From: Patescibacteria group bacterium
GTDB taxonomy: Bacteria > Patescibacteriota > Minisyncoccia > UBA6257 > 2-01-FULL-56-20
NCBI GenBank assembly: GCA_038077975.1
Contig: JBBUGM010000027.1
Span: 1-50,951 of the forward strand
Reading direction: 5' to 3'
Length of the DNA stretch: 50,951 nucleotides
The notes under the pieces: generated by a model
What the model was told of the DNA's origin: nothing
What the model saw: the letters and a program-made list of their open reading frames with translations, nothing else
The model's database searches: none
Position numbers and translations under genes: made by a program
Shown here: piece after piece, positions 4,979 to 48,223 of the stretch
Layout of the letters: the number at the start of each line of letters is the position of its first letter
Position numbering within the stretch: the first letter of the stretch is position 1

Positions 4979-5049
4979 TGTAATTTATATTATTACATAA
5001 GCTCCAAAGTTTTACTTATGGGGCTTTTTCCTTAAGCACGACTAAGCAA

Positions 5050-5178
5050 GGTTTTTGCTTCGCGAGGAGCTATCGGAGGGCCGATAAGCTTGGCATCGCG
5101 GAGCGATTTATCGACCCGAGATGCAAGATCGCTCCACCGCAGGAGTGGAGCGAATCTGGTCATCGCGAAGCAAAAACC
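5050..5178. repeat. 129-bp MITE-like structured element with 16-bp perfect terminal inverted repeats
   Basis: ggtttttgcttcgcga (5050-5065) / tcgcgaagcaaaaacc (5163-5178); internal hairpins such as cgctccac...gtggagcg; no target-site duplication seen. Confidence 0.7.
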
Positions 5179-5183
5179 GAGCG

Positions 5184-11830: not shown

Positions 11831-11996
11831 ATTTTAGCTTGGTGAATAATGCGTTTTCCTTTGTCATTCTGCCGTGCATCGCCAAATGCTATGCCGGCGG
11901 CGCGAGGGCTTGAGCCCGAAGAATCTCGATGAATTTCCCGGCAATCTGAGATTCCTCGCAAAGCTCGGAATGACCATTTTTCACCAAGCTTTATAT

Positions 11997-17823: not shown

Positions 17824-17829
17824 AAAAGT

Positions 17830-17930
17830 GTAATGCTAATCTGCGAATTCATGCGAATGCTGCTAATAGTTCTAATGAAAATGAGTGTTATTCGTTGCAT
17901 TCGTCGCGCATTAGTAATTAGTATTATGTT
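17830..17930. repeat. Imperfect palindromic element, CGAAT/ATTCG family, in the nusA leader
   Basis: atgctaatctgcgaat (17833-17848) is identical to 37750-37765. Confidence 0.7.
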
Positions 17931-20869: not shown

Positions 20870-21211
20870 ATGGACAAACAAAAAATCGAAGATTATAAAA
20901 AACAGCTTGAAAGGGAAAAGTTGCGCCTTCTTGCGGAATTGAACAAAACAGAAAAAGGTGAAGATTATGGCTCGGATGTTGATATCGACGAAGAAACGGA
21001 TGAAGCGGAAAGTTTTTCTGAGGGCCTCGCGATCGGCCAAGGACTTAGAGAGCGCATTAACGAAATCGATTTGGCTCTCAAAAGAATACAAAATGGTAAA
21101 TTCGGCCTTTGTGAAAATTGTGGTAAAGAAATTGAGGAAGACATCTTAAAAATTTCTCCGGAATCTAAGCTTTGCAAAAACTGTAAAAGAAAAAATCACA
21201 TATCAGCATAA
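20870..21211 (+). CDS. TraR/DksA-family C4 zinc-finger protein
   Basis: DEETDEAE coiled-coil tip, ALKRIQNGKFGLCENC...CKNC. Confidence 0.9.
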   Translation: MDKQKIEDYKKQLEREKLRLLAELNKTEKGEDYGSDVDIDEETDEAESFSEGLAIGQGLRERINEIDLALKRIQNGKFGLCENCGKEIEEDILKISPESKLCKNCKRKNHISA

Positions 21212-21300
21212 ATCTGCCAAATCAGCATCTATCAGCGTTTAGAAATAAAATATGCGGCTTAATCGCCGATCTATGCTGATAAAGCTGATTTGTGCTGATG
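21200..21300. repeat. Periodic palindromic element, ATCAGC/GCTGAT family
   Basis: atcagc units on the left arm and gctgat units on the right; atatcagcataaatc is identical at 21200-21214 and 25197-25211. Confidence 0.75.
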
Positions 21301-25059: not shown

Positions 25060-25144
25060 TACAAGTGGCTTTTTATCCTTATTAAATTGACCTAAGATTG
25101 TACTGATAACTTGACTATAGCACATCGTTATTCCGAGGAACAAC

Positions 25145-28535: not shown

Positions 28536-28564
28536 CTTATAAAATTATAATAGCACAATTCCAG

Positions 28565-28682
28565 ACAAATTTTCAATTATCAATTCTCAATTTTCAATCA
28601 AACCTCAAGCATTAATGCGCAATTGAAAATTAAACCATTTTGGAACTTTATTGATAATTGCTCATTGAAAATTGATAATTAA
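28565..28682. repeat. 7-nt periodic palindromic element (TCAATT/AATTGA family)
   Basis: Left arm ttttcaa-ttatcaa-ttctcaa-ttttcaa; right arm ttgaaaa/ttgataa units. Confidence 0.8.
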
Positions 28683-28685
28683 GCC

Positions 28686-29573
28686 ATGAGTCGCCTTGGC
28701 CAACATTTTTTAAAAGATAAAGTCGCGCTCAAAAAAATTGTTGATGCGCTGGATTTGCGCTCCGGTGACATCGTTATTGAGATTGGAGCGGGACACGGAG
28801 AGCTCACTAGAAAAATTATCAATTTTCAATTATCAATTTTCAAAAACGATGCGCAAAAAATTAAAATTATTGCAATCGAAAAAGACAATGGTCTCGCAAA
28901 AGAATTTGCGAGAAATTTTCAATGTCCAATTTCCAAGTTTCAAGAAAATGCTGATAAATTACTAAATGAAAATTTCGTGCTCTTTAATGATGATGTTTTG
29001 AAAATTCTAGCGCCCTTGATCGAATTTCTAAATTTGAAAATTGAAAATTGTAAATTGAAAATTTGCGGGAATATTCCCTACTACATCACCGGAAAACTTT
29101 TGCGTATTTTGAGCGAGCTGGAAAATAAGCCGGAGGTTTCCGTTTTCACAATCCAAAAAGAGGTTGCCGAAAGAATGTGCGCCTTGCCGCCGCGTAATAA
29201 CCGCTTGGCCGCAATAACACAGTTCTGGACAGAGCCAAAAATCCTCGAATATCTCGCGCCCGGGGCGTTTAATCCGCCGCCGGAGGTGGAGTCCGCCATC
29301 ATTAGATTAAAAATCAAAGATCAAAATGCAAAATTGATCGACGCGTGGAAATACTACGAAACCGTAAGAATTTTGTTCCAACAGCCGCGCCAAACAATTT
29401 TGAACAACCTCGCGCGGGCGACTAAACAAAAAAGGGCCATCGGCACAAATCAGCCCAATCGGCATAAATCAGCGATTATAGAAAAGCTTTCCGCAATAGA
29501 GATCGATCCCGAAAGCCGGCCACAAAATTTGAGCGTTGGAGAAATAATTCAAATCAGCTCCTTAAACCTTTGA
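28686..29573 (+). CDS. rsmA: 16S rRNA dimethyladenosine transferase with repeat-derived insertions
   Basis: LGQHFL, IEIGAGHGELT, AIEKD, GNIPYYIT, QKEVAERM, FNPPPEVESA, RPQNLS. Confidence 0.95.
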   Translation: MSRLGQHFLKDKVALKKIVDALDLRSGDIVIEIGAGHGELTRKIINFQLSIFKNDAQKIKIIAIEKDNGLAKEFARNFQCPISKFQENADKLLNENFVLFNDDVLKILAPLIEFLNLKIENCKLKICGNIPYYITGKLLRILSELENKPEVSVFTIQKEVAERMCALPPRNNRLAAITQFWTEPKILEYLAPGAFNPPPEVESAIIRLKIKDQNAKLIDAWKYYETVRILFQQPRQTILNNLARATKQKRAIGTNQPNRHKSAIIEKLSAIEIDPESRPQNLSVGEIIQISSLNL

Positions 29574-30094: not shown

Positions 30095-30228
30095 TTTCCG
30101 GCGATTGGTTTACGGTTTCGACGCCCGTATGGGATATCGGTTTACGGCGTATGGTTTCGAAGCCCGAATAACTTTCAACGTATAACGTATAACGATACGC
30201 GCTTCGTAAACGCACAACGTATAACGAT
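30095..30228. repeat. Long imperfect hairpin element, copy 1
   Basis: 30143-30187 matches 48105-48149 at 42 of 45 nt; tandem tataacg units. Confidence 0.8.
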
Positions 30229-34819: not shown

Positions 34820-36358
34820 ATGACTAATATCACCACGCAACAAGCAAGGGCGCGCTTCACAACAATTCCGCAAATCTTGCAGAACGAGGTTTTTTCCGTA
34901 CAAAACGCGGAAGTTATCGAGCAAATCTCGAAGCAAAATAATTTACCCGACGAGAAAATAGGAGAAGTTGCGGAAGTTGTTGGTTTCGCTCTTTTGGGGT
35001 TCATCCATCCCGAAGATGTGGCGAAAGAAGTAGAAGAACGGGCCGAAATTCCGCCCGCGCTTGCAACCGCGATATCCGAAGCGATAAATAAAAAAATATT
35101 CGCTTCTTTAAGAAACCAGTTAGATGAAATCTATGCTCCGGCTCCCCACGATCACGAACTCGAAGAAAAACCGCCGGTCTTTGTGGAAGAAATTAGGCCG
35201 CCGGTGGCGACTGCTCCTTCCGCTCCGAAAATGCCGACGGCGGTGCAACCCGTTGATATCAACAAAATTTTTGGCCCTTCGGCTGGCTCAGGGCAGGCGA
35301 TGACGCGACCCATTCCGCCGCCAGCGGTAAAACCTTTCGGCGCAATACAGGTTAAACCGCCGATGCCGCCTGCGCCGTCAACCGCAACAGGAATGAAAGT
35401 AGAGCCGCCCAAGCCGCCAGTATCGCAAATCTCTCCGATAAAGCCCGCCTCATCGACGCCTACATCAAAACCGCCCGGCAAGGAGGGATTGAGCGAATTT
35501 GAACGCCTCGGACTCGCCAAAAAATTAGGAGAGGCAACAGAACCAACGGTGCTTTACAAAGCACCAGAGGCAAAACTCGGCGAAAAAGTATCGAGTTTCA
35601 AGATCGAAACGCCGATCCCGAAATTCGACAAAGGAAAGCCCTTCGACTCCGCTCGGGGTATAACCGCTCCCCTAAGGCCGGCAGTACTCGAATTCGGGAC
35701 GGGCAAGCCGCCAGCCGCCCCTCCTTCGCCCAAAGCCGCGGAGGGCAAGGCGAGAATTGTGAACTATTCGGATCTAAAAACGACTCTTCCCCCGGTGGCA
35801 CCAAAACCGGCTCCAGAAAGAGAAATTAGGGAATTCACCGCGAAAGAAGCCGGACTCCCGACTTCACCCTCCAAAATTTCTGAAAGAAATTTAGGAGGGC
35901 AGGCGTCGGGAATGACAGAGAGGCCAGCGGCCGTGGCGCCATCGCCAATTAAACCCTTCGACTTCGCTTCCGCCGACGCCAGGGCTTTGGCGGACAGGCA
36001 GGGAATAAAAGCTCCAGAAAAACCAGCGGCTACACCCATGTCCAGACCACTCTTGGGGGACGAGAAAGCGATGCACCCCTCCCTTGAACCGTTGATGAAA
36101 AAAAGCGAGCCGCCCTCGCCTCCGGCTACGGCGAGCCAAAGACCGCCGGCTCCGCCGCCTTCCCCTTCGACAAGCTCAGGGAATAACGGAAGTTTATCGC
36201 CTGAGCGAGCTTCACGAGTCGAAGGCCGCCCTGCGACAAGCCCGGGAAATAACTCGACAAGCTCGGAGAATAACACCCCGCTGGCTTCTCCTCGCCCAAG
36301 AATCGAGCCACCACCCGTTCGTCGGCCAGAAAATCCATCCGACGAACGCAAGCTCTAA
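34820..36358 (+). CDS. Protein with a folded N-terminal helical domain and a Pro-rich disordered tail built partly from REP-like repeats
   Basis: Ordered first ~105 aa, then P/S/A-rich; repeat copies detailed in findings. Confidence 0.8.
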   Translation: MTNITTQQARARFTTIPQILQNEVFSVQNAEVIEQISKQNNLPDEKIGEVAEVVGFALLGFIHPEDVAKEVEERAEIPPALATAISEAINKKIFASLRNQLDEIYAPAPHDHELEEKPPVFVEEIRPPVATAPSAPKMPTAVQPVDINKIFGPSAGSGQAMTRPIPPPAVKPFGAIQVKPPMPPAPSTATGMKVEPPKPPVSQISPIKPASSTPTSKPPGKEGLSEFERLGLAKKLGEATEPTVLYKAPEAKLGEKVSSFKIETPIPKFDKGKPFDSARGITAPLRPAVLEFGTGKPPAAPPSPKAAEGKARIVNYSDLKTTLPPVAPKPAPEREIREFTAKEAGLPTSPSKISERNLGGQASGMTERPAAVAPSPIKPFDFASADARALADRQGIKAPEKPAATPMSRPLLGDEKAMHPSLEPLMKKSEPPSPPATASQRPPAPPPSPSTSSGNNGSLSPERASRVEGRPATSPGNNSTSSENNTPLASPRPRIEPPPVRRPENPSDERKL

Positions 36359-36485
36359 ATCCTAAGCCCTAAATCCTAAACAAAATCAAAATTCTAATGT
36401 TCCAAAACGCTAAAAACTTTTGGAATTTAGGATTTGTGGTTTGGGGCTTGTTTAGAATTTAGAATTTAAATATTAGAATTTAAAC
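36355..36485. repeat. 7-nt periodic palindromic element (CTAAAT/ATTTAG family)
   Basis: ctaaatc-ctaagcc-ctaaatc-ctaaaca left arm; ttagaat-ttagaat right arm. Confidence 0.8.
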
Positions 36486-36487
36486 TG

Positions 36488-36979
36488 ATGCAATTCCAAG
36501 TTCCCCAATTCATCGAAACGGAAGACAAGATAGTCGGGCCTTTTTCCATAAGGCAATTCATTTATATAGGCGCGGCCGGCATTGTGAGCTTCTTCCTTTA
36601 TTTCACGGTCGAGCTCTGGCTTTGGGTTTTGGGCACCGTTTTTTCGCTGGCGCTCGCAATGGGATTCGCCTTCATCAAGATAGAAGGGCGCGATTTAACG
36701 CATGTTCTCGCCGCGGCTTTGAACTTTTACTGGAAGCCACAAACCTACGTCTGGCAGCCGGAACATCCGGAAGTGCCGAAAAGCGAGGCGCTCGAAAAGG
36801 AAGCGGGAATTTCACTTGAAGACGTCCTTTCCGGTGCCGCGCTTCGAAACGCCTGGCGTGGGCTACAGACCGGCACGAAAGTTTCGCCTAGACAGGTCCT
36901 CGAGAAAGGAGAGAAATATCAGATCTTTCAAAAATTGAGCGGAGAACGCCGCGCCGCAAGGCGCATAGATTACAGATAA
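36488..36979 (+). CDS. prgI: PrgI-family (VirB3-like) membrane protein
   Basis: MQFQVPQFIETEDKIVGPFSIRQF followed by two TMs. Confidence 0.85.
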   Translation: MQFQVPQFIETEDKIVGPFSIRQFIYIGAAGIVSFFLYFTVELWLWVLGTVFSLALAMGFAFIKIEGRDLTHVLAAALNFYWKPQTYVWQPEHPEVPKSEALEKEAGISLEDVLSGAALRNAWRGLQTGTKVSPRQVLEKGEKYQIFQKLSGERRAARRIDYR

Positions 36980-37068
36980 TGCAAAAATCAAAATGCAAAA
37001 ACTGATTTCGAATGATAGAATTAATTAAACTTCATTTTGAATTTTGATTTTTTAATTTTGATCTAATT
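36978..37068. repeat. 7-nt periodic palindromic element (CAAAAT/TTTTGA family)
   Basis: atcaaaatgcaaaa is shared with 43143-43156 and with rsmA 29320-29333. Confidence 0.78.
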
Positions 37069-37070
37069 TT

Positions 37071-37742
37071 ATGCCCAAAGATCTCGGCAACACACAAGAC
37101 CTCGTGGCCATCGAGGAAATAAAAGAGGACACGGTGGTCCTCAAAGGCGGCGCCCTGCGGCAAATCATTATGGTGAGCGGCGTTAACTTCGCCTTGAAAT
37201 CGGAGGTAGAACAAAACGTGATAACGCAGTCGTATCAGAATTTTTTAAACGGACTCGATTTCAACATCCAGATCGTCATCCATTCGAGAAAAGTGAATGT
37301 GGAAAAATATCTTGGGATCATCACGCGCTTCGAAGAGATGGCAACGGTGCCCCTCATCAAAAACCAGGCGAGCGAATACAAAGAATTCATCCGCAGTTTC
37401 GTTTCCAAGAACGCGATCATGGAGAAAACGTTTCTTGTGCTCGTGCCTTTCGCCTCTGTTGCCTTGCCGAGCGCGGAATCCGTAACTTCCGGCATTTCTC
37501 TGCCGTTCTTCAAAAAGAAGGACGCGAAAGAAACGGAGGCGAAAGCGAAAGAGGCATCCGAAGAGCGCTTCAAGGAGGATCTGGCGCAACTTCGCCAGCG
37601 CACAACGCAAGTTGTGGACGGCCTTTACTCTGTCGGCCTTGAATCGGTGGTTCTGAACACTGAACAATTGATCCAGCTTTTCTATAATTTTTACAATCCG
37701 GAAACGATCGAAAGGGAGAATATGGAAATACCAAATCAATAA
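37071..37742 (+). CDS. T4SS-associated protein resembling the VirB4/TraE N-terminal region
   Basis: IIMVSGVNFALKSEVEQ...YQNFLNGLDFNIQIVIHSRK; lies between prgI and virB4. Confidence 0.72.
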   Translation: MPKDLGNTQDLVAIEEIKEDTVVLKGGALRQIIMVSGVNFALKSEVEQNVITQSYQNFLNGLDFNIQIVIHSRKVNVEKYLGIITRFEEMATVPLIKNQASEYKEFIRSFVSKNAIMEKTFLVLVPFASVALPSAESVTSGISLPFFKKKDAKETEAKAKEASEERFKEDLAQLRQRTTQVVDGLYSVGLESVVLNTEQLIQLFYNFYNPETIERENMEIPNQ

Positions 37743-37744
37743 AG

Positions 37745-37830
37745 TATCGATGCTAATCTGCGAATGAATACTAATTATACTAATGAATTTTTATTCGTAT
37801 CATTAGCATAATTCGTATATTCGTATCGAT
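37745..37830. repeat. Palindromic element, CGAAT/ATTCG family
   Basis: 16-nt identity with 17833-17848. Confidence 0.72.
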
Positions 37831-37839
37831 ACAATATCT

Positions 37840-39555
37840 ATGCCTGAAAATAATTTCAAAAACATCGCGAAGATAATAGCGCCCTCCGGCGTGCAGGTGC
37901 AGTCGAACAAGGCGAAGATCGGCAACAAAATCGCCAAGGCGTTCTTCGTTTTTTCTTATCCGCGCTATCTCGCGACCGGATGGTTCGAGCCCCTGATCAA
38001 CCTCCCCTACCTTTTCGATGCCTCCGTCTTCATAGACCCGATAGACACGGGCACGGCTTTGAAAAACCTACGAAAAAAGGCGGCGCAGATCGAGTCGCAG
38101 ATCAACGACCAGCAGGAAAAAGGGCTCGTGCGCGACCCCCTGCTCGAAACCGCCCTCCAGGACGTGGAGACCCTGCGCGATACACTCCAAACCTCGCAGG
38201 AAAAGCTCTTTGATGTCGGCCTTTATGTGACGATCTATGCCGACACCGACGACGAACTTGCGAAAGTCGAGTCGAAGCTTATCTCTCTTCTCGAAGCAAA
38301 GCTTGTCTACTTGAAGCCGGCGCTTTTCGAACAGCTTGAGGGCATTTTCTCGACCCTCCCCTTGGTTGACGACAAGTTGAAGATACACACGCCGATGAAC
38401 TCGGGGCCGGTTTCGTCTTTCTTCCCGTTCGTCTCCGAAGATCTTTCTTCCAACGAAGGAATTCTCTACGGCGTGAACCTCCACAACCAAAGTTTGGTCA
38501 TCTTCGACAGATTCTCGCTTGAAAACGCGAACCAGGTAGTTTTCGCGAAATCCGGCGCCGGAAAATCGTACGCCACGAAACTCGAGATCATCAGAGCCCT
38601 GATGACTGATGTCGAAAACATTATCATCATCGACCCCGAGAACGAATACAAAAAACTGGCGGAGACGTTCGGCGGCAGCTGGTTCAATATCTCGCTCTCT
38701 TCGAAAGAGCATATCAACCCATTCGACATACCCATGGTTCCCGAAGATGAATCTCCCGCAGACGTTTTGCGCTCTCACATCGTGAACCTTACGAGCTTAC
38801 TCAAGCTCATGCTCGGAAAGATCGCCCCGGAAGAAGAGGCGCTCCTCGACCGCGCCGTCACGGAAACCTACGCTTCGCGTGAGATCTCACCGAACAGGGA
38901 TTTCTCGGGCATCGAGCCGCCACTCCTCGAAGACCTCGAAACGGTTCTCCGCAATCTTGAGGGCGGCCGTTCGATGGCGGAGAGATTATACAAATACACA
39001 AAGGGTAGTTTTTCCGGCTTCATCAACCAGCCGACGAACGTGGACATGTCTAACCGGCTTATCGTTTTTTCCATCCGCGATCTTGAGGAAGAGCTACGGC
39101 CGATCGCTATGTTCGTCATTTTGAACTTTATTTGGAACCTTATACGCGCAAAACTTTCAAAGCGCCTACTTTTGATTGACGAGGCGTGGATCATGATGAA
39201 GAACGAAGACGCCGCCACTTTCCTTTTCGGAATGGTGAAACGCGCGAGAAAATATTATTTGGGCGTGACGACGATTACGCAGGACGTGGAGGACTTCTTG
39301 CGTTCGCCTTACGGCAGGCCGATCATCACAAACTCTTCTCTCCAGCTTTTATTAAAACAGGCGCCGGCAACGATCGAGCTTGTGGCGAAAGCTTTTAATT
39401 TAACTGAAACGGAAAAGAATTTCCTTCTGGGCTCCGAGGTCGGAACCGGACTTTTCTTCGCCGGCCGCAGGCACGTGGCGATCCAGATCGTCGCGTCTTA
39501 TTTCGAGGATCAGATAATCACGACAAACCCGGCGGAACTTTTGGAAGGAAAGTAG
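37840..39555 (+). CDS. virB4: VirB4-like T4SS ATPase
   Basis: ILYGVN, FDRFSLENAN, Walker A FAKSGAGKS, IIDPENEY, INPFD, Walker B LLIDEAW, RARKY, TITQDVEDF. Confidence 0.93.
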   Translation: MPENNFKNIAKIIAPSGVQVQSNKAKIGNKIAKAFFVFSYPRYLATGWFEPLINLPYLFDASVFIDPIDTGTALKNLRKKAAQIESQINDQQEKGLVRDPLLETALQDVETLRDTLQTSQEKLFDVGLYVTIYADTDDELAKVESKLISLLEAKLVYLKPALFEQLEGIFSTLPLVDDKLKIHTPMNSGPVSSFFPFVSEDLSSNEGILYGVNLHNQSLVIFDRFSLENANQVVFAKSGAGKSYATKLEIIRALMTDVENIIIIDPENEYKKLAETFGGSWFNISLSSKEHINPFDIPMVPEDESPADVLRSHIVNLTSLLKLMLGKIAPEEEALLDRAVTETYASREISPNRDFSGIEPPLLEDLETVLRNLEGGRSMAERLYKYTKGSFSGFINQPTNVDMSNRLIVFSIRDLEEELRPIAMFVILNFIWNLIRAKLSKRLLLIDEAWIMMKNEDAATFLFGMVKRARKYYLGVTTITQDVEDFLRSPYGRPIITNSSLQLLLKQAPATIELVAKAFNLTETEKNFLLGSEVGTGLFFAGRRHVAIQIVASYFEDQIITTNPAELLEGK

Positions 39556-39604
39556 CCCGCCAATGGACGCTAATATTACCGCTAATTTACGCTAAAAATT
39601 AAAG

Positions 39605-40333
39605 ATGAACGAGGCCGAAGGAGAGAAAAAAATAGATCTGGTATTAGGAATCATTCTGATGCTTCTCGCCCTGCTTTCAGACGGGACGGACGCGTTAGCC
39701 GCCGCCGCTTTCGCGATCCCTGTTTTAGGCCAAATCACATACCTTTTAAACGCCTTTCTTATATCGCCCGTCGTTTGGGCGATCATACAATTTTCATTTA
39801 TAATGAAAATGGGGTTTGCGGGAAGAGTTGGCTTGATGAATTTGACCGGCGGAATTTTGAATGTGATAGGCATCCCCGGAAGTGAAACTTTAGCAACTTC
39901 CATCGCAATTTGGTTCGCCAACCATCCGAAGGCAGCGGCTGTAGCGCAGGTCGCAACTGGAAAAGTTGGAGCGGCGGGTGGCAAAGCGGCGGCGGCAGAA
40001 AAAGCAGGCGCCGTTGCGGGAGGCGGCGCGGTCGCGGAAAAAACAGCCGCCGGAGCCGCGGGAGCGGCAAGGGCCGAACGCGGAGCCGAAGCGGCGGTAG
40101 AGGCCGAACGCGGAGTGGCCGGCGCAGAACGCGCGGCGGTTTCGGAGGGCAGAGCAGCCGAAGGCGCGCCGAGAGAACCGGGCAAGGGTGTCTCGGAAGA
40201 AGCAATGGGCGTCAAACCGGAAGAAGCGGAAAATCTGCCGAGAAAACTTTTGGAGGAGTTCCCCGAAGCCAAAAGAGAAGAAGAAGCCGAAAGCGAGGGC
40301 GAAGGAGAGGAGGAGTTGCCGAAGGCAGTATAG
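39605..40333 (+). CDS. Membrane protein with an Ala/Gly-rich then Glu-rich tail
   Basis: Hydrophobic N-terminal half followed by low-complexity AAGGKAAAAEK...EEE. Confidence 0.78.
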   Translation: MNEAEGEKKIDLVLGIILMLLALLSDGTDALAAAAFAIPVLGQITYLLNAFLISPVVWAIIQFSFIMKMGFAGRVGLMNLTGGILNVIGIPGSETLATSIAIWFANHPKAAAVAQVATGKVGAAGGKAAAAEKAGAVAGGGAVAEKTAAGAAGAARAERGAEAAVEAERGVAGAERAAVSEGRAAEGAPREPGKGVSEEAMGVKPEEAENLPRKLLEEFPEAKREEEAESEGEGEEELPKAV

Positions 40334-40339
40334 ACACAA

Positions 40340-40480
40340 AAAACCAAAATTGTAAATCACAAATTACAAGCACCAAATTACAAACAAATTCCAATAACCA
40401 AAATAAAAATTCCAAACCTTTCGAATTTCGGATTTATAATTTTGATATTGTTTGTGATTTGAAATTTGTAATTTACCTAT
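40340..40480. repeat. 7-nt periodic palindromic element (CAAATT/AATTTG family)
   Basis: 32-nt taaatcacaaattacaagcaccaaattacaaa is identical at 40353-40384 and 41208-41239. Confidence 0.85.
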
Positions 40481-40503
40481 GGGGTAGTTGAAAAAATTTA
40501 AAA

Positions 40504-41199
40504 ATGGCAACACAAAATTTAGCAATTAAGTTTATTGTAGTTGCGGCGCTTGTCGCCCTGTTTTTTGCCGCGCAGTTCTTGAGCGCGCAGGCACAAGCGC
40601 AGCCATATCTTTGGATAACATGGCACGCGGAAAGCTACGCGCCGCCCGGCTTCGGAGGGAAAATCTTGCCGACGGCCGGCTCGCCCATCACCGCGTCTTT
40701 TGAAGTGATCGGCGGCGGCAAACCGGCTAACGTTTCCGCGCAAACCGTTTATTGGTATTTGAATAATGAGCTTATTTCGAACAAGGCGGGTACAAAAACC
40801 GTGAAATTCAACGCACCCTCAAGAACTTCCGCGCTTTTGGATCTGCGCATCGAGCTTCCCACATATCCTGGGGGACTTCTTCTTCGAACGGCGCGGATTC
40901 CTGTCGTCTCACCGGAAGCCGTAATTGAAGCGCCTTATCCGGATAAAGCGTTTTCCGGCGCGCAAATAAAAGCAACGGGAAGGCCTTACTTTTTCAACAT
41001 ACAAAACATTTCAGAGCTTAACTTTTCATGGAGCGTTGACGGACAAACTCCGGGTTCTCTCGAGCGCCCGCAGGAACTTATCGTTAATCTCGACCCTAGC
41101 TCGCCGATGGGAACCGCCGTGAACCTCGCCCTCACTATCCTCAACGCGAAAAACCAAGCGGAGTCGGGCTCCGGATTCCTAATATTGAGAAAACAATAG
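40504..41199 (+). CDS. Secreted protein with two Ig/PKD-like beta domains
   Basis: Signal peptide ending AQA; VYWYLNN and FSWSVDG motifs. Confidence 0.78.
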   Translation: MATQNLAIKFIVVAALVALFFAAQFLSAQAQAQPYLWITWHAESYAPPGFGGKILPTAGSPITASFEVIGGGKPANVSAQTVYWYLNNELISNKAGTKTVKFNAPSRTSALLDLRIELPTYPGGLLLRTARIPVVSPEAVIEAPYPDKAFSGAQIKATGRPYFFNIQNISELNFSWSVDGQTPGSLERPQELIVNLDPSSPMGTAVNLALTILNAKNQAESGSGFLILRKQ

Positions 41200-41204
41200 C
41201 AGTC

Positions 41205-41432
41205 GGTTAAATCACAAATTACAAGCACCAAATTACAAATTAATATTAAAAGTCAAAAACATCTGTCATTCTCGGACTCGATCCGAGAATTCAGGATCGT
41301 CCAAGAAACTAGATTCCCGCTTTCGCGGGAATGACAGGGAATATCATTTTGGTCATTGAAATTTGTTTGTGATTTGTAATTTCGAATTTGTGATTTTAGC
41401 CGCTTGGGATTTGATTAGGTCAATTAGAAATT
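41205..41432. repeat. Composite: heptamer palindrome with a nested REP (41264-41336), then a 29-nt dispersed repeat
   Basis: tgtcatt...gattcccgctttcgcgggaatgaca between heptamer arms; ttgggatttgattaggtcaattagaaatt is identical at 41404-41432 and 44477-44505. Confidence 0.8.
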
Positions 41433-41433
41433 T

Positions 41434-41799
41434 ATGAGTAATAATATTATCATTTATCTGCCCCTGTTTCTTTTTCTGCTTTTGTTTCTGCCTTCTGCAA
41501 GCGTGCACGCGGTTGATTTTTCGCTTCCGGGCGGAATACACACAGAAGCCGAGGGCACACCGGGGATCATTGATGATATTTACAGATTTTCACTGTTCTC
41601 CGCCGGAATCCTTGCGTTCGGCGCGATCGTCTACGGAGGAATCAAATACACTTTTGCGGCGGGGAATCCTTCGGGGCAAAGCGAGGGAAAAGAATGGGTG
41701 AAGGGCGCGCTTTTGGGCCTCCTGCTCCTTGCTGGAGCGTATCTCATACTCCGAACCATCAACCCGCAATTAGTACAATTAAGATTACCGACACTATAA
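41434..41799 (+). CDS. TrbC/VirB2-like T4SS pilin
   Basis: Signal peptide (SVHA-V); AFGAIVYGGIKYTFAAGNP...GKEWVKGALLGLLLLAGAYLILRTINP. Confidence 0.85.
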   Translation: MSNNIIIYLPLFLFLLLFLPSASVHAVDFSLPGGIHTEAEGTPGIIDDIYRFSLFSAGILAFGAIVYGGIKYTFAAGNPSGQSEGKEWVKGALLGLLLLAGAYLILRTINPQLVQLRLPTL

Positions 41800-41925
41800 T
41801 TTAATCTCTAAACTCAAAACCCTAATCTCTAAACAATTTCAAATGTCGAAATCCGAAACGGTTAGTTTTTGAAATTTGAGTTTTGGATTTGTTTAGAAAT
41901 TAGAAATTAGGATTTAGAAATTTGT
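41800..41925. repeat. 7-nt periodic palindromic element
   Basis: tttgagttttggatttgtttaga is identical at 41875-41897 and 44421-44443. Confidence 0.8.
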
Positions 41926-41931
41926 TTTACC

Positions 41932-43128
41932 ATGAAGCGCCTATCTTATCTCATAATCATTCTCGCGGTCGTGGCTTTGGTCGTTCTCATCGGCTATTTC
42001 TTGCGCTACAGAGCCGGCGAGCCGGCCACCTCCGGCGAGCCATCTCCGGGAGGACTTCCGGCGATCCCGACCGAGCCGATTTCCCAGCCCGGCGGGGAGG
42101 AGGGGGGCGGAGCCGTTACGCCACCGGCAGAAGTCGTCCAGCCGGGTGAGCAGAAGTTCGGGGTGATAGCGCAGAACCAGGTGTTCGACTTTTTTGTCGA
42201 CGCACAAAATAATACCGTTCTTATCCAGCCCGACGGGCAGGTTGTAAAAGTAGTAAAAGGAGAAGCGTCTGTCTTAAGTTCGTCAGTAATCAACAACTTA
42301 CGGCGGGCGGAGTTCTCTTATGACGGCAAATTCATCCTTGCTTCATTCGGCGGCGCAAGTGGACAAGAACACAGCATCTTTAATATCGATGCAAAATCCT
42401 GGAGCCCGCTTTCAGGGGGGATCTCGTCGCCAACATGGTCGCCGATGAACTACCAAATCACATATTTCCGCGAAAATGCCGGCGTAAAAACGCTTGAAAC
42501 GCTTAATACCGCCGATCCAAAAGCCAAACCGCAGGAGCTCACGCGTTTGAACGCCGAAGACCTGTTGCTCTCTTGGATAAGCCCGAACCAAATGATAATT
42601 GGCGAAAGGGGAAGCGCGCTTGTCGCGGGATCGCTTTGGAGCTTCGATACGCAGAAGAAAACCATGTCGTTATTCATGGATGGCGTACTTGGCCTTAATT
42701 CCGCATGGAGCGGTGAGGCATCAACTGGCCTTGTCTTTAGAACCGATGTCTCTCGCCGCGGAGGCACGCTTTCCTTATATGACGTGGCCGGCAATGCGCT
42801 TGCGAACCTTTCGTTCCTTTCCCTCCCTTCAAAATGCGCGTTTGACGCAGTCCCTGCGAATGGAACCGGAACGGCCGCCTCAAAATTCCTTTACTGCGCG
42901 ATCCCGGCAAATGCTGAAAGTTTCGGGAATTCCATGCTGCCGGATGATTACGAAAAACGCGCGCTCTTTGCTCGCGATGGATTCTTTAGGGTGGACCTTG
43001 CGGAGGGTGGCATTAAAGAACTTCTCACGGGACAGCTTGTTGACGGAAATCGGCTGAAGATCTTCGGAAAGAATCTGTTCTTCATAAACCGGCTTGATGG
43101 AAGATTGTACGCGCTGGCGCTAGAATAA
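41932..43128 (+). CDS. Membrane-anchored beta-propeller-like protein
   Basis: N-terminal TM, Pro/Gly linker, TolB-like FSYDG, WSP and WISP blade motifs. Confidence 0.72.
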   Translation: MKRLSYLIIILAVVALVVLIGYFLRYRAGEPATSGEPSPGGLPAIPTEPISQPGGEEGGGAVTPPAEVVQPGEQKFGVIAQNQVFDFFVDAQNNTVLIQPDGQVVKVVKGEASVLSSSVINNLRRAEFSYDGKFILASFGGASGQEHSIFNIDAKSWSPLSGGISSPTWSPMNYQITYFRENAGVKTLETLNTADPKAKPQELTRLNAEDLLLSWISPNQMIIGERGSALVAGSLWSFDTQKKTMSLFMDGVLGLNSAWSGEASTGLVFRTDVSRRGGTLSLYDVAGNALANLSFLSLPSKCAFDAVPANGTGTAASKFLYCAIPANAESFGNSMLPDDYEKRALFARDGFFRVDLAEGGIKELLTGQLVDGNRLKIFGKNLFFINRLDGRLYALALE

Positions 43129-43222
43129 TGCAAAATGCAAAAATCAAAATGCAAAATGACAATGTAAAAATTTTTAGATTAAAGATTTGTGTTTTTGATC
43201 TTTGATTTTTAAATTTTGATTT
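43128..43222. repeat. 7-nt periodic palindromic element between convergent genes
   Basis: tgcaaaa-tgcaaaa-atcaaaa-tgcaaaa left arm; ttttgat units on the right. Confidence 0.78.
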
Positions 43223-43643
43223 AAAGTGGTTTTATGACCACGCTTCTTTCTTTTCCGATACCGAAACTTTCGGTTTTTACTTCCGGATGCACCGCAAGCG
43301 TTACGTGCACGATTCGCCTTTCATAGGAATTCATCGCCGGTAAAGAAACGCTTTCTTTGGTTGAAACCGCTTTTTTGGCGGCGGCTTTCGCAAGTTCGGC
43401 TATCAAATTTTCTCTCTCTTGCCGGTAATTATTGATGTCGAAAAAAACCGACGATTCATTGTTCTTCTTCGCCACCATGTGGGCGAGATGATTAATGCTC
43501 TCCACCAGTATCGGCAAATTATCCTTGACGAGATTGGGGCTGTCATAAATAAATATCTGCCCCCGCTTTTCTTCCGGCTTCAATTCCACGCGAAAATCGC
43601 CGAATCCCATAAACTCAATTATTTTTTTGATCAAATTTTCCAT
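43221..43643 (-). CDS. jag: Jag/KhpB-like KH-R3H RNA-binding protein lacking the Jag-N domain
   Basis: FFDINNYRQERE, LPAMNSYERRIVH, ESFGIGKERSVVI. Confidence 0.85.
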   Translation of the reverse strand: MENLIKKIIEFMGFGDFRVELKPEEKRGQIFIYDSPNLVKDNLPILVESINHLAHMVAKKNNESSVFFDINNYRQERENLIAELAKAAAKKAVSTKESVSLPAMNSYERRIVHVTLAVHPEVKTESFGIGKERSVVIKPL

Positions 43644-44340
43644 CGTTCTTTAATTGCCTATTAATGATGATCTGCTGGAACACTGAAAAAAGGGAGGTCG
43701 CCGCCCAGTAAAGCGCGACAGCGGCCGGGAAATTGAAAAAGATGACGACCGTGATGATCGGGCCCACAAAAACCATGTTGTGAGCCATCTTTTCCTGCGT
43801 CGTCTGCGGCTTTTCACCTTTTTTCCACAGGGCCAGTTTTCCTTGAAAATACTGGGCTAAAGCGGCCAAACTCACAATAAGAATACTTGATTCGCCGAGG
43901 TTTATCAAACCAAAAAGGGTGTTGTGGATAACTTCCGGCCGCGCCACAAAAGGATATAAGCTGTCCAAAAATTCGGGTTTGAGCGTGTTCAAGAAAATCC
44001 TGTAAAGCGCGATCAATATCGGGAGCTGCACCAGGAGTATAAAAAATCCGGAAAAGGGATTGACGTTGTGTTCGCGATAAAGATGGAGCATCGCCTCCGC
44101 CTGTTTTTCTTTGTTAGCTTTATGCTCGTCTTGGATCTTTTTTACTTTCGGCTGAAGGCGCTGCATCACCATTTGATGCTTCGCGCCTTTGTGGAAGAGC
44201 GGATAAAGTATCAGCCGGACGATTATTGTAAGAATAATGATTGCGAGTCCAAGGTCTTCGAAGGCAACTGTGTTGTAAAGAAAAACCAACAAATTCAAAA
44301 GCGGCCTGTTAAGAATTTCGTTGTAGAGGAAAGAGAACAT
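43615..44340 (-). CDS. yidC: Membrane protein insertase YidC (short, monoderm type)
   Basis: GLAIIILTIIVRLILYPL, LQPKVKKIQ, NPFSG, LVQLPILIALY, AVALYWAAT. Confidence 0.93.
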   Translation of the reverse strand: MFSFLYNEILNRPLLNLLVFLYNTVAFEDLGLAIIILTIIVRLILYPLFHKGAKHQMVMQRLQPKVKKIQDEHKANKEKQAEAMLHLYREHNVNPFSGFFILLVQLPILIALYRIFLNTLKPEFLDSLYPFVARPEVIHNTLFGLINLGESSILIVSLAALAQYFQGKLALWKKGEKPQTTQEKMAHNMVFVGPIITVVIFFNFPAAVALYWAATSLFSVFQQIIINRQLKNDGKFDQKNN

Positions 44341-44344
44341 AGTA

Positions 44345-44512
44345 AGGGCAAAAAATTTCTAAATCCTAATTTCTAATCTCTAAATAATCTCAAACATCAA
44401 AGTTCAAAGGGGTTTTGGGGTTTGAGTTTTGGATTTGTTTAGAGATTAAGGTTTAGAGATGAGAGATTTCAAACTGTTGGGATTTGATTAGGTCAATTAG
44501 AAATTAGATTAA
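44345..44512. repeat. Heptamer palindromic elements between rnpA and yidC
   Basis: ttctaaa-tcctaat-ttctaat-ctctaaa left arm; identities with 41875-41897 and 41404-41432. Confidence 0.78.
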
Positions 44513-44839
44513 TTAGAAATTTTGCTTGATTTTTTCTCCAAACGTCCGAAGCGCTTCCTTAACTTCTTCCGCGGTTGCTTCGTTAATTTTTTTGAAAACT
44601 ATGACCAGAATGTCTTTTTGATTCTCTGCGGATTTTTTAATTTCATCGGCGATGATCCTTCTCCAAAAATTCCTCCTTGCGGCGTTTTTCACTGCCGCGG
44701 AAGAAATGATGATCCCGAATCTGGGGTGGACTACTTCGTTTTCGAAAACCTTTATCAAAAAGAATGGCAGCGAGATCGTTTGCTTCGGCTTTTTCCTTTT
44801 CGTTTCTTCTACGGCCAGACGAAATTTTTTGGAATACAT
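44513..44839 (-). CDS. rnpA: Ribonuclease P protein component
   Basis: RFGIIISSAAVKNAARRNFWRRII (RNR-like), DILVI; position after rpmH. Confidence 0.85.
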   Translation of the reverse strand: MYSKKFRLAVEETKRKKPKQTISLPFFLIKVFENEVVHPRFGIIISSAAVKNAARRNFWRRIIADEIKKSAENQKDILVIVFKKINEATAEEVKEALRTFGEKIKQNF

Positions 44840-44844
44840 ACGCT

Positions 44845-44933
44845 AACGCAAGCGATGCTAAACTACGAATCTCATGCGAATCTACGAAAAATAATTCGCG
44901 GCATTCGCATGTATTTGAAGATTCGAATCGCGA
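44845..44933. repeat. CGAAT/ATTCG-family element between rpmH and rnpA
   Basis: 44894-44931 matches pcrA 26963-27000 at 34 of 38 nt. Confidence 0.78.
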
Positions 44934-45068
44934 TTAAACCGTGAGTCGCCGCCTCCCTTTCTGCCTCCGGCGCGAAAGAACGCGTCTGCCTCCCGGACTT
45001 CTCCTTCTCCGCAAGAAGCCGTGGGTTCTGCTCCTTTTTCTTTTCTTTGGTTGGAACGTTATCGACAT
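44934..45068 (-). CDS. rpmH: 50S ribosomal protein L34 (not in the ORF track)
   Basis: [44 protein letters not shown], 44 aa. Confidence 0.95.
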
Positions 45069-45075
45069 GGAAATC

Positions 45076-45104
45076 ATCGTATCACAGAGGAATCGTGCTG
45101 CCAA
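45076..45104 (-). promoter_or_regulatory. rpmH promoter, likely leaderless
   Basis: TTGGCA-17-(TGa)TACGAT, then 7 nt to ATG. Confidence 0.6.
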
Positions 45105-45134
45105 ATGAGGCAAGCGTGAATTGAGCTAAAAAAG

Positions 45135-45323
45135 TTATCAACAAATAATCCCCAAAAGCGTCTTTTTTCCTTTTGACCGTGAGAGAAATAAAACTAAAAT
45201 TAATCTATTGACTTCAAGAATATCGCAGGTGAAGGAAGTTCGACAGGATGTTCCACTCAAAAAAGCCCCGTTTCTATTGGCTTTCACCTCTTGCGCTTCA
45301 CAAAATATTTGTTTTGTGTAAAA
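45135..45323. promoter_or_regulatory. DnaA-box-like sites upstream of dnaA
   Basis: TTATCAACA at 45135-45143 (1 mismatch); TGTGTAAAA at 45315-45323 (fits TTWTNCACA). Confidence 0.5.
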
Positions 45324-45463
45324 ATTAGAAAAATTTCTGTTGTTTAAAAAGCGCGCGTAGGACCGGTAAATAGTTTCACGGACTCGCATCTCTACGAGCT
45401 ACTCTTGTGCCGATGCGGGCACACGAAAGCGGTAAAACTTAGGATCAATTAAAAAGTAAAATC

Positions 45464-46819: not shown

Positions 46820-46943
46820 CCGCATTTACACAGAGAGGCGCAGCGAAAAGAATTTAAAGAAAGGATAATTTTAACTTATCCACAAAAACAACTCTTACTA
46901 ATAACTAAAACAATAATTTTATATATACTTATTTATTATAGTT
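46820..46943. other. Probable oriC unwinding region
   Basis: Perfect DnaA box TTATCCACA at 46876-46884, then nTA triplets (tta-cta-ata, 46895-46903) and an AT-rich tract. Confidence 0.78.
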
Positions 46944-48056: not shown

Positions 48057-48067
48057 TGCGAGTTAAA

Positions 48068-48213
48068 CGGTGTACGTTAGAGATGCCCGTTTCGGATATC
48101 ATCCTACGGCGTACGGTTTCGAAGCCAGAATAACTTTCAACGAATAACGATACTCACTTCCAAACCGTACAGCGAAAAACGATTGGCGATACGGGCTTCC
48201 AAAACGTACACCG
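48068..48213. repeat. Long imperfect hairpin element, copy 2, between convergent dnaN and the PBP gene
   Basis: cggtgtacgtt/aacgtacaccg (11 bp); tacggtttcgaag/cttccaaaccgta (12 of 13). Confidence 0.8.
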
Positions 48214-48223
48214 ATAGCCGCTC

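Follow-up and report, generated by a model that had tools for sequence, protein, structure and literature searches.

The intergenic palindromes of this contig are several families of non-coding hairpin insertions, and they are probably the gene-less, MITE-like form of cassettes built around a PF05635/TIGR02436 four-helix-bundle gene. The window, i.e. the whole stretch of 50,951 nt that was analysed, belongs to the 0.77 Mb genome (88.6% complete) of a groundwater bacterium. The identities of rpmH, rnpA, yidC, jag (R3H) and dnaA were confirmed in it, as were those of PrgI, TraC-like, VirB4 and a T4SS pilin, and an Rfam scan of the window returned two tRNAs only. The window copies of the hairpins occupy gaps between protein-coding genes or overlap such genes in part, and a 23S rRNA helix is the insertion site of none of them. 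The new point is the probable link, drawn from sequence comparison, of such arms to genes of PF05635, the 23S rRNA intervening-sequence (IVS) protein.

An inverted-repeat scan of the window found intergenic fold-back repeats of 90-230 bases composed of ~7-base units, with stems of 23-56 pairs (Table 1). The first-pass annotation had listed palindromic elements in nine gaps at 36.3-45 kb, and eight of the nine hold imperfect palindromes that beat shuffled controls. The palindrome alignment score of each gap was compared with 200 dinucleotide shuffles: no shuffle matched it for the gaps at 37743, 40334, 41200, 41800, 44341, 44840, 21190 and 28536, three to five did so at 36359, 43129 and 17824, eight at 25060 and, a marginal result, twelve at 36980. 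When the halves were shuffled separately, which retains the A-rich/T-rich skew, only 0-1 of 200 shuffles reached the observed score in the gaps that had given 0/200. Gap 364-422, in which an element had been proposed at 369, consists of direct repeats and has no palindrome. The five exact shared blocks (32, 29, 23, 16 and 15 nt) were all recovered in place.

Table 1. Hairpins, solo arms and a repeat spacer in the window (shuffles: dinucleotide shuffles out of 200 that match the palindrome score)
Position	Strand	Family	Feature	Gap	Shuffles	Remarks
17828..17928	+	C2	hairpin		5/200	
21202..21299	+	D	hairpin, ATCAGC words, period ~10		0/200	
28556..28682	.	TCAATTN	hairpin		0/200	Tandem Repeats Finder
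30107..30228	+	F	hairpin, GC-richer, ACGGTGTACGG words			profile match
36346..36481	.	A	hairpin, units TCTAAAT/CCTAAAT then TTTAGAA	36359-36487	3/200	between 512-aa gene and PrgI-like gene; upstream stop codon within its first unit
36980..37070	.	G	hairpin, AATGCAA/AAATCAA units		12/200	PrgI-like/TraC-like junction; 23-nt arms, 87% complementary; weakest palindrome of the set
37743..37839	.	C2	hairpin, GCTAAT/GCGAAT words, periods ~9-10 nt		0/200	between TraC-like gene and VirB4; 36 bp, z=-7.0
39556..39604	+		spacer, three direct CGCTAAT-type units		89/200	not palindromic; absent from the first-pass list
40354..40474	+	B	hairpin, arms AAATCACAAATTACAAGCACCAAATTACAAACAA ... TTGTTTGTGATTTGAAATTTGTAATTT	40334-40503	0/200	92% identity to family B consensus
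41208..41396	+	B	hairpin	41200-41433	0/200	GC-rich palindromic insert nested at centre, ~41262-41345
41404..41432	+	A2	solo right arm, TTGGGATTTGATTAGGTCAATTAGAAATT	41200-41433		ends one base before pilin ATG
41803..41924	+	A	hairpin	41800-41931	0/200	pilin gene/398-aa gene junction; 56-nt arms
43129..43220	.	G	hairpin		4/200	convergent junction
44354..44470	+	A	hairpin	44341-44512	0/200	yidC/rnpA junction
44477..44521	+	A2	solo right arm			covers final codons and stop of rnpA (minus strand)
44851..44932	+	C	hairpin, CGAAT words	44840-44945	0/200	rnpA/rpmH junction
48058..48221	+	F	hairpin			convergent junction; 49 bp, z=-8.7

The expected 7-nt period is present genome-wide. Over every 60-300-nt intergenic region of the genome, compared with shuffles, lag 7 is the top autocorrelation peak (0.290 vs 0.262 in shuffles, z=16.5) and lag 14 also peaks (z=7.6); within the window elements the lag-7 self-match is 0.436. 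Tandem Repeats Finder reported 12 period-7 arrays at 36.3-44.6 kb. Folding at z<-2 was seen for 52% of 311 intergenic regions vs 3.8% of length-matched coding controls, and was strongest in convergent gaps (76% at z<-2). The elements lie a median 8 nt after a stop codon and 15.5 nt before the next start codon; copies are wedged between these two codons or sit inside the centre of another hairpin, and fragments are found within coding sequences too. Arm polarity is strong, the 5' arm being A/C-rich and the 3' arm T/G-rich (30 vs 3). Elements do separate rpmH from rnpA (family C) and rnpA from yidC (family A), as had been annotated. The block at 5.9-13.9 kb, described as element-free, is so for the AT-rich heptamer families, with tight junctions, but at ~11862-11975 it has a palindromic element that is richer in GC and belongs to a different family.

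Searching the bacterium's own genome with six profiles (blastn and nhmmer) gave 126 non-overlapping loci. Family B copies have up to 97% identity to their consensus, with sharp ends and unrelated flanks, and the seven near-full copies of family C are 79-89% identical (blastn). Full-length copies have a non-repetitive central sequence in common at unrelated loci; conservation is concentrated in the outer arms, unit number varies between arms and among copies, and nesting is common. The elements are multi-copy, short and non-coding with conserved terminal inverted repeats, which are the characters of a MITE. The proposal of one architecture spread by a common mechanism is borne out by several sequence families, all inverted arrays of ~7-nt units, that occur as dispersed copies. 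Since the families are dispersed copies of each other, some shared propagating process behind them is, judging from these alignments, very likely.

Four-helix-bundle genes had been named as candidates for association with the elements elsewhere, and PF05635 genes are indeed bracketed by arms of the A2, B and TCAATTN families. The PF05635 gene at C16:7038-7519 of the own genome lies within A2 arms, and at other loci these arms have B elements or short loops inside. One relative (L022) carries a PF05635 gene within TCAATTN arms, which are of one family with the window hairpin 28556..28682, plus a gene-less TCAATTN element, and another (L024) has such a gene within GAATAAA arms directly after VirB4. 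Inverted ~7-nt-unit arrays clearly flank 19 of the 28 PF05635 genes of relatives, with arms rarely common to different cassettes. At the PrgI/TraC junction, where the window has a family G hairpin, four relatives carry a PF05635 cassette, and the low identity of their four-helix-bundle proteins (13-41%, vs 76-83% for VirB4) points to independent insertions. The window copies carry no ORF. The own genome, as far as assembled, has two or three PF05635 genes only, none of them within B, C, C2, D, F or G arms, and no gene-bearing counterpart of the CGAAT and ATCAGC families (C, C2, D) was found. Gene-bearing cassettes appear to have arms of the type seen in the gene-less elements and, in the case of three families, to share the arm sequences themselves.

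Family B extends beyond this lineage. An exact 25-mer of its arm was found in 89 stretches of species genomes; their labels span many phyla, Nanoarchaeota among them, but derive from metagenome bins and may include binning errors. Near-full B hairpins are present at 53 of the 80 loci analysed, and at seven loci, with labels from several phyla, ~430 nt separate the arms and the ORF between them scores above the PF05635 cut-off. B arms are found in genomes labelled CPR, Desulfobacterota, Omnitrophota, Gammaproteobacteria and Nanoarchaeota.

The closest genome (G001) is of the same genus and has the same operon with VirB4 80% identical; its orthologous junctions contain no elements and no period-7 arrays. 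Junctions of 129, 91, 97, 49, 170, 234, 132, 92, 172 and 94 nt in the window correspond there to gaps of 19, 57, 11, 2, 9, -4, 17, 38, 16 and 15 nt. At the convergent junction, where the window has hairpin 43129..43220, G001 has a perfect 20-bp GC-rich terminator-like palindrome. Of 41 relatives, 13 have family B and 11 have C2; the genomes concerned differ between the two families, and G001 has neither. Each family is patchily distributed among relatives in its own pattern, the same junctions lack the elements in most relatives, and the unit sequence at one junction differs from relative to relative. All other assemblies of the same population are 99.8-100% identical with unchanged gaps, and no empty allele came up in a search for one. 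The elements are apparently dispersed selfish DNA and not conserved regulatory signals.

The first-pass annotation had raised the possibility that the elements tune stoichiometry as signals for the processing, stability or termination of RNA, i.e. as host-beneficial mRNA hairpins that process, stabilise or terminate transcripts and set relative expression inside operons. Hairpins at nearly all cistron boundaries of the T4SS-like operon and of rpmH-rnpA-yidC would suit such a role, as would the strong folds of convergent gaps, the terminator-like palindrome of G001 in place of a hairpin, and the RNase III (rnc gene) encoded by the genome; owing to the polarity the 3' arm is U-rich whichever strand is read, in agreement with a terminator-like function on both. 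The role is nevertheless unlikely, and tuning is left without support by the empty G001 sites, the patchiness of the families and the orientation of the elements, which is independent of gene direction with both orientations equally frequent. On the sense strand there is no G-U excess (227 G-U-compatible vs 232 A-C mismatches), and no compensatory covariation was found in the hairpins. The terminator pattern of a GC-rich stem plus T-tract is matched by no AT-rich heptamer hairpin; within the elements it occurs once, as the nested GC-rich palindrome at 41313-41332. The fragments inside coding sequences also speak against an RNA signal.

Ordinary MITEs or REPINs, either insertion-sequence derivatives or RAYT-mobilised REP doublets moved by a conventional transposase, would account for size, terminal inverted repeats, dispersed multi-copy occurrence, intergenic sites and breaks at contig ends, and REPINs are also hairpins of ~100 nt (PMC3116915). 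Such an origin is decidedly improbable in view of the gene content of the own genome: Y1/RAYT (PF01797), for which control genomes gave hits, and TnpB are absent from it, and its only two DDE (rve) genes are diverged copies with no family matches beside them and unrelated to the elements. The flanks of full-length copies have no consistent target-site duplication, a transposase-bearing parent insertion sequence with matching ends was not found in the 88.6% of the genome available, and the longer arm-sharing elements carry the four-helix-bundle gene, not a transposase.

That the arrays arose independently in each gap, growing by replication slippage and becoming palindromic via template switching, is highly improbable. 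According to PMC4679880 and PMC4692102, which cite Mrazek 2007, no long simple repeat is more common in bacteria than the heptamer, and polymerase slippage has been proposed as its origin; the variable unit number, the different units at one junction in different relatives and the rarity of common arms among relatives' PF05635 cassettes would all be expected from it. Slippage probably shapes the arms, but it cannot account for the families, given the non-repetitive centres and sharp ends common to copies at unrelated loci and the exact 25-mer and full B hairpins under many phylum labels. An integron attC cassette array, an idea raised by a hairpin after nearly every gene, fits poorly with the conserved order of what are core genes.

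The gene-less cassette reading has its model in the 23S rRNA IVS, which are described as selfish, combine a stem with S23p and are cut by RNase III (PMC4990558), since arms around a PF05635 gene are the design of the ORF-bearing IVS. In those of Coxiella burnetii, Leptospira and Salmonella, as here, terminal inverted repeats form a long stem, and a PF05635 (S23p) four-helix-bundle ORF in the loop is optional, as it would be here with the gene-bearing cassettes counted in; both are AT-rich relative to the host, regarded as selfish, and sporadic in a way that suggests horizontal transfer (PMC4990558). The IVS stem is an RNase III substrate, and cleavage is putative here. Unlike the IVS, the elements lie between protein-coding genes without an ORF in the window copies, and they form multi-copy families with tandem ~7-nt arms and frequent nesting. 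REPINs (PMC3116915) are likewise extragenic multi-copy hairpins with conserved inverted ends and several families per genome, but they have a RAYT/Y1 and a 20-40-nt REP palindrome in place of heptamer-array arms, whereas the partner gene here, where present, encodes a four-helix-bundle protein without known catalytic activity. Bacterial MITEs (Correia/NEMIS, ERIC, RUP) are also small, non-coding and dispersed with terminal inverted repeats, often co-transcribed with their neighbours and variably present among relatives; for the elements, in contrast, no target-site duplication was seen and no transposase-bearing parent sharing the ends was found. Rickettsia palindromic elements are palindromic repeats of a reduced genome which also land in coding sequences and are read through. 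The elements here differ from these in being mostly intergenic, in their periodic arms and in having a gene-bearing relative.

Published intergenic heptamer arrays, with no mechanism known, include inverted GGGAATC pairs in Xanthomonas (70-75 convergent pairs per genome), GGGGAYT in Nostoc, STRR in Calothrix and TAACTGA in Beggiatoaceae (PMC4692102, PMC4679880). They share with the elements the 7-nt tandem units, the position near ORF ends and the patchy occurrence, and the elements have the two convergent intergenic arrays of the Xanthomonas type (PMC4692102). The organisms and unit sequences differ, and these papers describe no dispersed families with shared non-repeat centres, no nesting and no PF05635 link. 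The class had been called unrecognised; with the Xanthomonas arrays and the IVS design published this is too strong in general. For Patescibacteria our literature search found no paper on inverted heptamer arrays or stem-plus-optional-ORF elements.

As gene-less cassettes the elements would multiply by copy-and-paste, landing in the short stretches that separate genes or in the loop of a hairpin already present, and would persist at such sites by doing little harm. With no transposase found, they may possibly be mobilised in trans by the four-helix-bundle protein or by a host function. Transcribed stems would likely be cut by RNase III, as rRNA intervening sequences are; this possible RNA-level effect would split operon transcripts and would be a side effect, not a selected function. 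Movement was not observed directly, and the arm polarity is not explained by the cassette reading.

More tentatively, PF05635 genes with inverted heptamer-array arms may constitute a class of transposase-less mobile cassettes that multiply in trans, cross phyla and occupy stem-tolerant sites. If so, the gene-less hairpins would multiply in trans, comparable to REPINs with RAYT, and phylum and even domain boundaries would be crossed, as the B arms in Nanoarchaeota-labelled genomes suggest. Cassettes would settle at any site that either tolerates a stem in the transcript or allows its removal, i.e. operon junctions, hairpin loops and rRNA helices. The classical 23S rRNA intervening sequences would then be those copies whose insertion site happened to be rRNA, and cassette debris would make up some of the bacterial heptamer repeat DNA that still lacks an explanation.

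Contig C27, which the window covers entirely, belongs to a metagenome-assembled genome of 0.77 Mb in 33 contigs (88.6% complete). The closest homologues of its VirB4 carry the label Candidatus Liptonbacteria / Paceibacterota, and contigs identical to the window come from Hainich groundwater assemblies. The T4SS-like operon (34.8-43.1 kb) includes genes for PrgI-like, TraC-like, VirB4 and pilin proteins. Next come jag(R3H)-yidC-rnpA-rpmH, encoded on the minus strand, and after them dnaA; a likely replication origin lies beside the repeat-laden rpmH-rnpA-yidC genes. Start codons lack a Shine-Dalgarno-like purine run upstream, both in the window (36470-36490, 37055-37073 and 41915-41934) and at the junctions of the same-genus sister genome G001, in its operon stretch L011. 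The bases 5' of the start codons are A/T-rich and gaps in G001 go down to 2 nt, which points to initiation in this lineage being coupled or independent of a Shine-Dalgarno sequence. Elsewhere in the genome, the end of contig C31 is joined to the start of C16 by a 454-nt bridge in a Hainich contig (L144, ERZ1292632.324), which would scaffold the assembly.

The first-pass annotation had described palindromic elements with a period of 7 nt in nine gaps of this region, and long imperfect hairpins are indeed present there. Palindromic alignment scores were compared with those of 200 dinucleotide shuffles, and with a stricter control in which the two halves were shuffled separately so as to keep the A-rich/T-rich skew. 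Among whole-sequence shuffles the observed score was never reached for six of the nine gaps and was reached three to four times for two; the claim that the elements are more symmetric than shuffled sequence thus stands for eight gaps and is marginal for 36980-37070 (12 of 200 shuffles). Gaps 39556-39604 and 364-422 hold direct repeats rather than palindromes. All five exact sequence blocks said to be shared between elements occur where they had been placed. Genome-wide autocorrelation gave its highest intergenic peak at period 7 (z=16.5) and further peaks at the harmonics 14 and 21, and lag-7 self-match in the window elements is up to 0.44. Tandem Repeats Finder detected twelve period-7 arrays in the stretch holding the nine gaps; over the syntenic 11 kb the sister genome has none. 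Across the genome, 311 intergenic regions measure 60-300 nt, and 52% of them fold strongly (z<-2), against 3.8% of coding controls; both fractions are approximate, since gene calls were made in this analysis and some genes were missed. Of the strongly skewed hairpins, thirty have the A/C-rich arm on the 5' side and the T/G-rich arm on the 3' side, and three have the opposite arrangement; polarity is reversed in some gene-bearing cassettes of relatives. The 7-nt period may stem from recognition by a protein or from replication slippage, a cause proposed for heptamer repeats in the literature that PMC4679880 and PMC4692102 summarise. Stop codons in all three frames were set aside as its cause, stops being so frequent in AT-rich DNA that a test would carry no meaning.

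Judged from their sequences, the elements are dispersed repeat families rather than locus-specific structures. Every window element has homologues at other places in the genome, and the units cluster into families, of which six, followed by iterated nhmmer profiles, are multi-copy and scattered over 126 non-overlapping loci (about 12.7 kb), in line with the class of repeat proposed at first pass. Of family B (about 120 nt), 14 or more copies are full-length; their ends are sharp, their flanks unrelated, and their identity to the consensus is up to 97%. Conservation sits in the outer arms, while the centres split into subfamilies. Nesting is frequent: B lies in the centre of the arms of family A2 at least four times, the centres of B and A copies hold GC-rich palindromes, and in the long form of family C2 about 45 nt are inserted at the centre. 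Periods are longer in the CGAAT and ATCAGC families (C, C2 and D). In co-directional gaps the hairpin starts at a median of 8 nt past the stop codon, the distance from its end to the next start has a median of 15.5 nt, and many C2 copies stop 2-5 nt from an ATG.

Family fragments and period-7 arrays are also found within coding sequences. An ORF for a KsgA/RsmA-type rRNA adenine dimethylase (Pfam RrnaAD) contains four arrays and a family D fragment, so that repeat DNA seems to be read through in frame, and a PcrA-type helicase ORF contains a family C fragment (Table). Other repeats accompany the heptamer hairpins. A GC-richer palindromic family (GTCATTCYGAGC...GAAGAATC...GGAATGAC) occurs solo and nested in their centres, and words of a further family (CCTGAGCTTGTCGAAGG) are among the commonest 11-mers of the genome, with 41-46 occurrences. 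One gap of 205 nt has a very strong fold (dG -90.5, z=-7.7) around GGTTTTTGCTTCGCGA...TCGCGAAGCAAAAACC and no match in Rfam.

Table. Positions of repeat-bearing ORFs, additional palindromes, origin-linked spacers and integrase-core genes in the window and in other contigs of the same genome.
Feature	Coordinates	Remark
rpmH-dnaA spacer	window 45081-45463	likely replication origin
dnaA-dnaN spacer	window 46820-46943	likely replication origin
RrnaAD ORF	window 28686-29573	
Period-7 arrays in RrnaAD ORF	28814-28843, 28914-28941, 29030-29063, 29304-29334	
Family D fragment in RrnaAD ORF	29439-29497	
PcrA-type helicase ORF	25189/25240-27312	
Family C fragment in helicase ORF	26958-27001	
GC-richer palindromic family	window 11862-11975, 41262-41345; C8:8979, C14:18044, C17:25558	
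Gap with very strong fold	4979-5183	
rve-type (IS481/IS3-like) integrase-core genes, diverged	C2:8502-9503, C1:26564-27097	no hairpin family adjoining

The first-pass annotation had suggested that the elements act as RNA processing, stability or termination signals that tune stoichiometry within operons. The elements are not conserved signals. The sister genome, whose VirB4 is 80% identical, matches the window here in gene content and gene order, with short gaps: the first five measure 19, 57, 11, 2 and 9 nt against 129, 91, 97, 49 and 170 nt in the window, and the last five -4, 17, 38, 16 and 15 nt against 234, 132, 92, 172 and 94 nt. Sites filled in this genome are empty in its sister. In nine more relatives the gaps are mostly short, with occasional fills at differing junctions. 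The families are patchy, B being present in 13 and C2 in 11 of 41 relatives, in different sets of genomes, with both missing from the sister, and the orientation of the elements does not depend on gene direction. Transitions on the sense strand that still pair in RNA (G-U, 227) are about as many as those that do not (A-C, 232), and compensatory covariation within the six families was no higher than in slid controls. A scan for the canonical terminator pattern matched no AT-rich hairpin, its sole match inside an element being a nested GC-rich palindrome. All of this argues against the signal reading. At the convergent junction the sister has a perfect 20-bp GC-rich terminator-like palindrome (L011 8464-8503) and the window an AT-rich heptamer hairpin of family G instead (43129-43220); the palindrome was either lost from the window or never there. 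Rfam at gathering thresholds returned nothing in the window but two tRNAs. Promoter-like hexamers number 21 where 9.6 are expected, an enrichment that AT-rich DNA would give anyway and that was left out of account.

Small genes flanked by such arms, for which the first pass had proposed to look, are those of the PF05635/TIGR02436 four-helix-bundle family of 23S rRNA intervening sequences, a large protein family for which we know of no function. The two closest relatives retrieved through the protein database have such a gene inserted in this same operon, in both cases flanked by a pair of inverted 7-nt-unit arrays. In L022 (VirB4 83% identical) one array is built of ATTTTCA/ATTCTCA and its counterpart of TGATAAT; in L024 (VirB4 88% identical), where the cassette follows VirB4, the units are GAATAAA and TTTATTC. 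The present genome has two clear PF05635 genes. The one on C31 has private TGTTTCA arms; the arms around the one on C16 are of family A2, to which the solo arms at 41404 and 44477 and the arms enclosing B elements also belong. Likewise, the window element at 28556-28682, a gene-less element of L022 and the arms of the L022 gene cassette form one family. The arms are thus common to gene-less hairpins and gene-bearing cassettes, and the gene-less forms are multi-copy; for families C, C2 and D a gene-bearing counterpart was not found. PF05635 genes are present in 26 of 41 relatives, and 19 of 28 inspected loci are clearly bracketed by inverted arrays of units of about 7 nt (22 with weaker pairs included), the unit sequence differing at nearly every locus. 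At the PrgI|TraC junction, four of ten relatives (L015, L016, L018 and L022) carry a PF05635 cassette; since the four proteins are 13-41% identical to each other while the VirB4 proteins are 76-83% identical, the cassettes were inserted independently, at a site that is favoured. In many Paceibacterota the T4SS-like operon is a repeated landing site for PF05635 cassettes, one genome (L082) carrying the cassette before PrgI.

Family B carries this link beyond the lineage. An exact 25-mer of its left arm was found in 89 stretches of a one-genome-per-species collection, against a roughly estimated chance expectation of about 0.01. By their labels, these stretches come from Omnitrophota, Desulfobacterota/Thermodesulfobacteriota, Gammaproteobacteria, Aminicenantes, Planctomycetales, WOR-3, many CPR classes and Nanoarchaeota; the labels derive mostly from metagenome bins and may include binning errors. 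A near-full-length B hairpin is present in 53 of 80 analysed loci. In seven loci the B arms stand about 430 nt apart around an ORF (about 120 aa) scoring above the PF05635 cut-off, the GCACCAA-unit arm being upstream of the gene in all four cassettes that could be judged. One B cassette, in a Staskawiczbacteria genome, lies directly upstream of a gene whose product starts like PrgI (MEQYPIPQFIEQEGK, against MQFQVPQFIETEDK in the window), that is, at the same junction as window 36346-36481. The 25-mer was absent from 2.9 million viral contigs, and phages were accordingly rejected as vector of the family. A 21-mer of C2 was found only in Hainich assemblies, in contigs of the same organism and one unrelated contig. 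A Hainich contig of another organism (L147, ERZ1292629.4005) carries, in DNA that is otherwise unrelated, three C/C2 elements with 77-92% identity to copies in the present genome.

These elements probably spread by copy-and-paste, both into the few bases that separate a stop codon from the next start and into the loops of resident hairpins. The four-helix-bundle protein is the obvious candidate for the mobilising function, although it has, to our knowledge, no known catalytic activity. Y1/RAYT and TnpB are absent from this 88.6% complete genome, and an all-against-all protein comparison for transposases recovered just two rve genes (Table), which are diverged, have no element close by and are unrelated to the families. 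The genome encodes RNase III (rnc), and by analogy with rRNA intervening sequences (PMC4990558) transcribed stems could plausibly be its substrates, in which case insertions in operons would be tolerable. Contigs whose PrgI protein is identical match the window at 99.97-100% identity, and among these and the Hainich contigs an empty allele was not found; the joined-flank pattern of an empty B site had no match in metagenome contigs.

The nearest described elements are the ORF-bearing 23S rRNA intervening sequences, which likewise combine a stem with an ORF of this family and are sporadically distributed, but are located in rRNA and single-copy; we know of no account of their origin since 1990. 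REPINs are alike in size, hairpin form and copy number, but their RAYT is missing here. MITEs fit in general, though no target duplication was seen at the elements and no parent transposase is visible. The inverted GGGAATC heptamer arrays of Xanthomonas have a similar arm design, but neither families nor a link to a gene are described there. TIGR-Tas arrays were rejected, as there is no array-plus-Tas context here. We found no literature that describes elements of this kind in Patescibacteria or that connects PF05635 with heptamer arrays outside rRNA.

Beyond gene-bearing cassettes alone, the genome adds multi-copy gene-less families, orthologous junctions left unoccupied in its sister, and arms whose sequences are common to gene-bearing and gene-less copies within and across phyla. 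Whether the four-helix-bundle protein binds or mobilises its arms thereby becomes a testable question. The elements have a bearing on metagenome assembly, because their copies often adjoin contig ends, and on operon transcription and translation where gene starts show no visible Shine-Dalgarno. A 0.77-Mb 'streamlined' symbiont-type genome can thus carry a heavy load of apparently selfish hairpins inside its essential operons.
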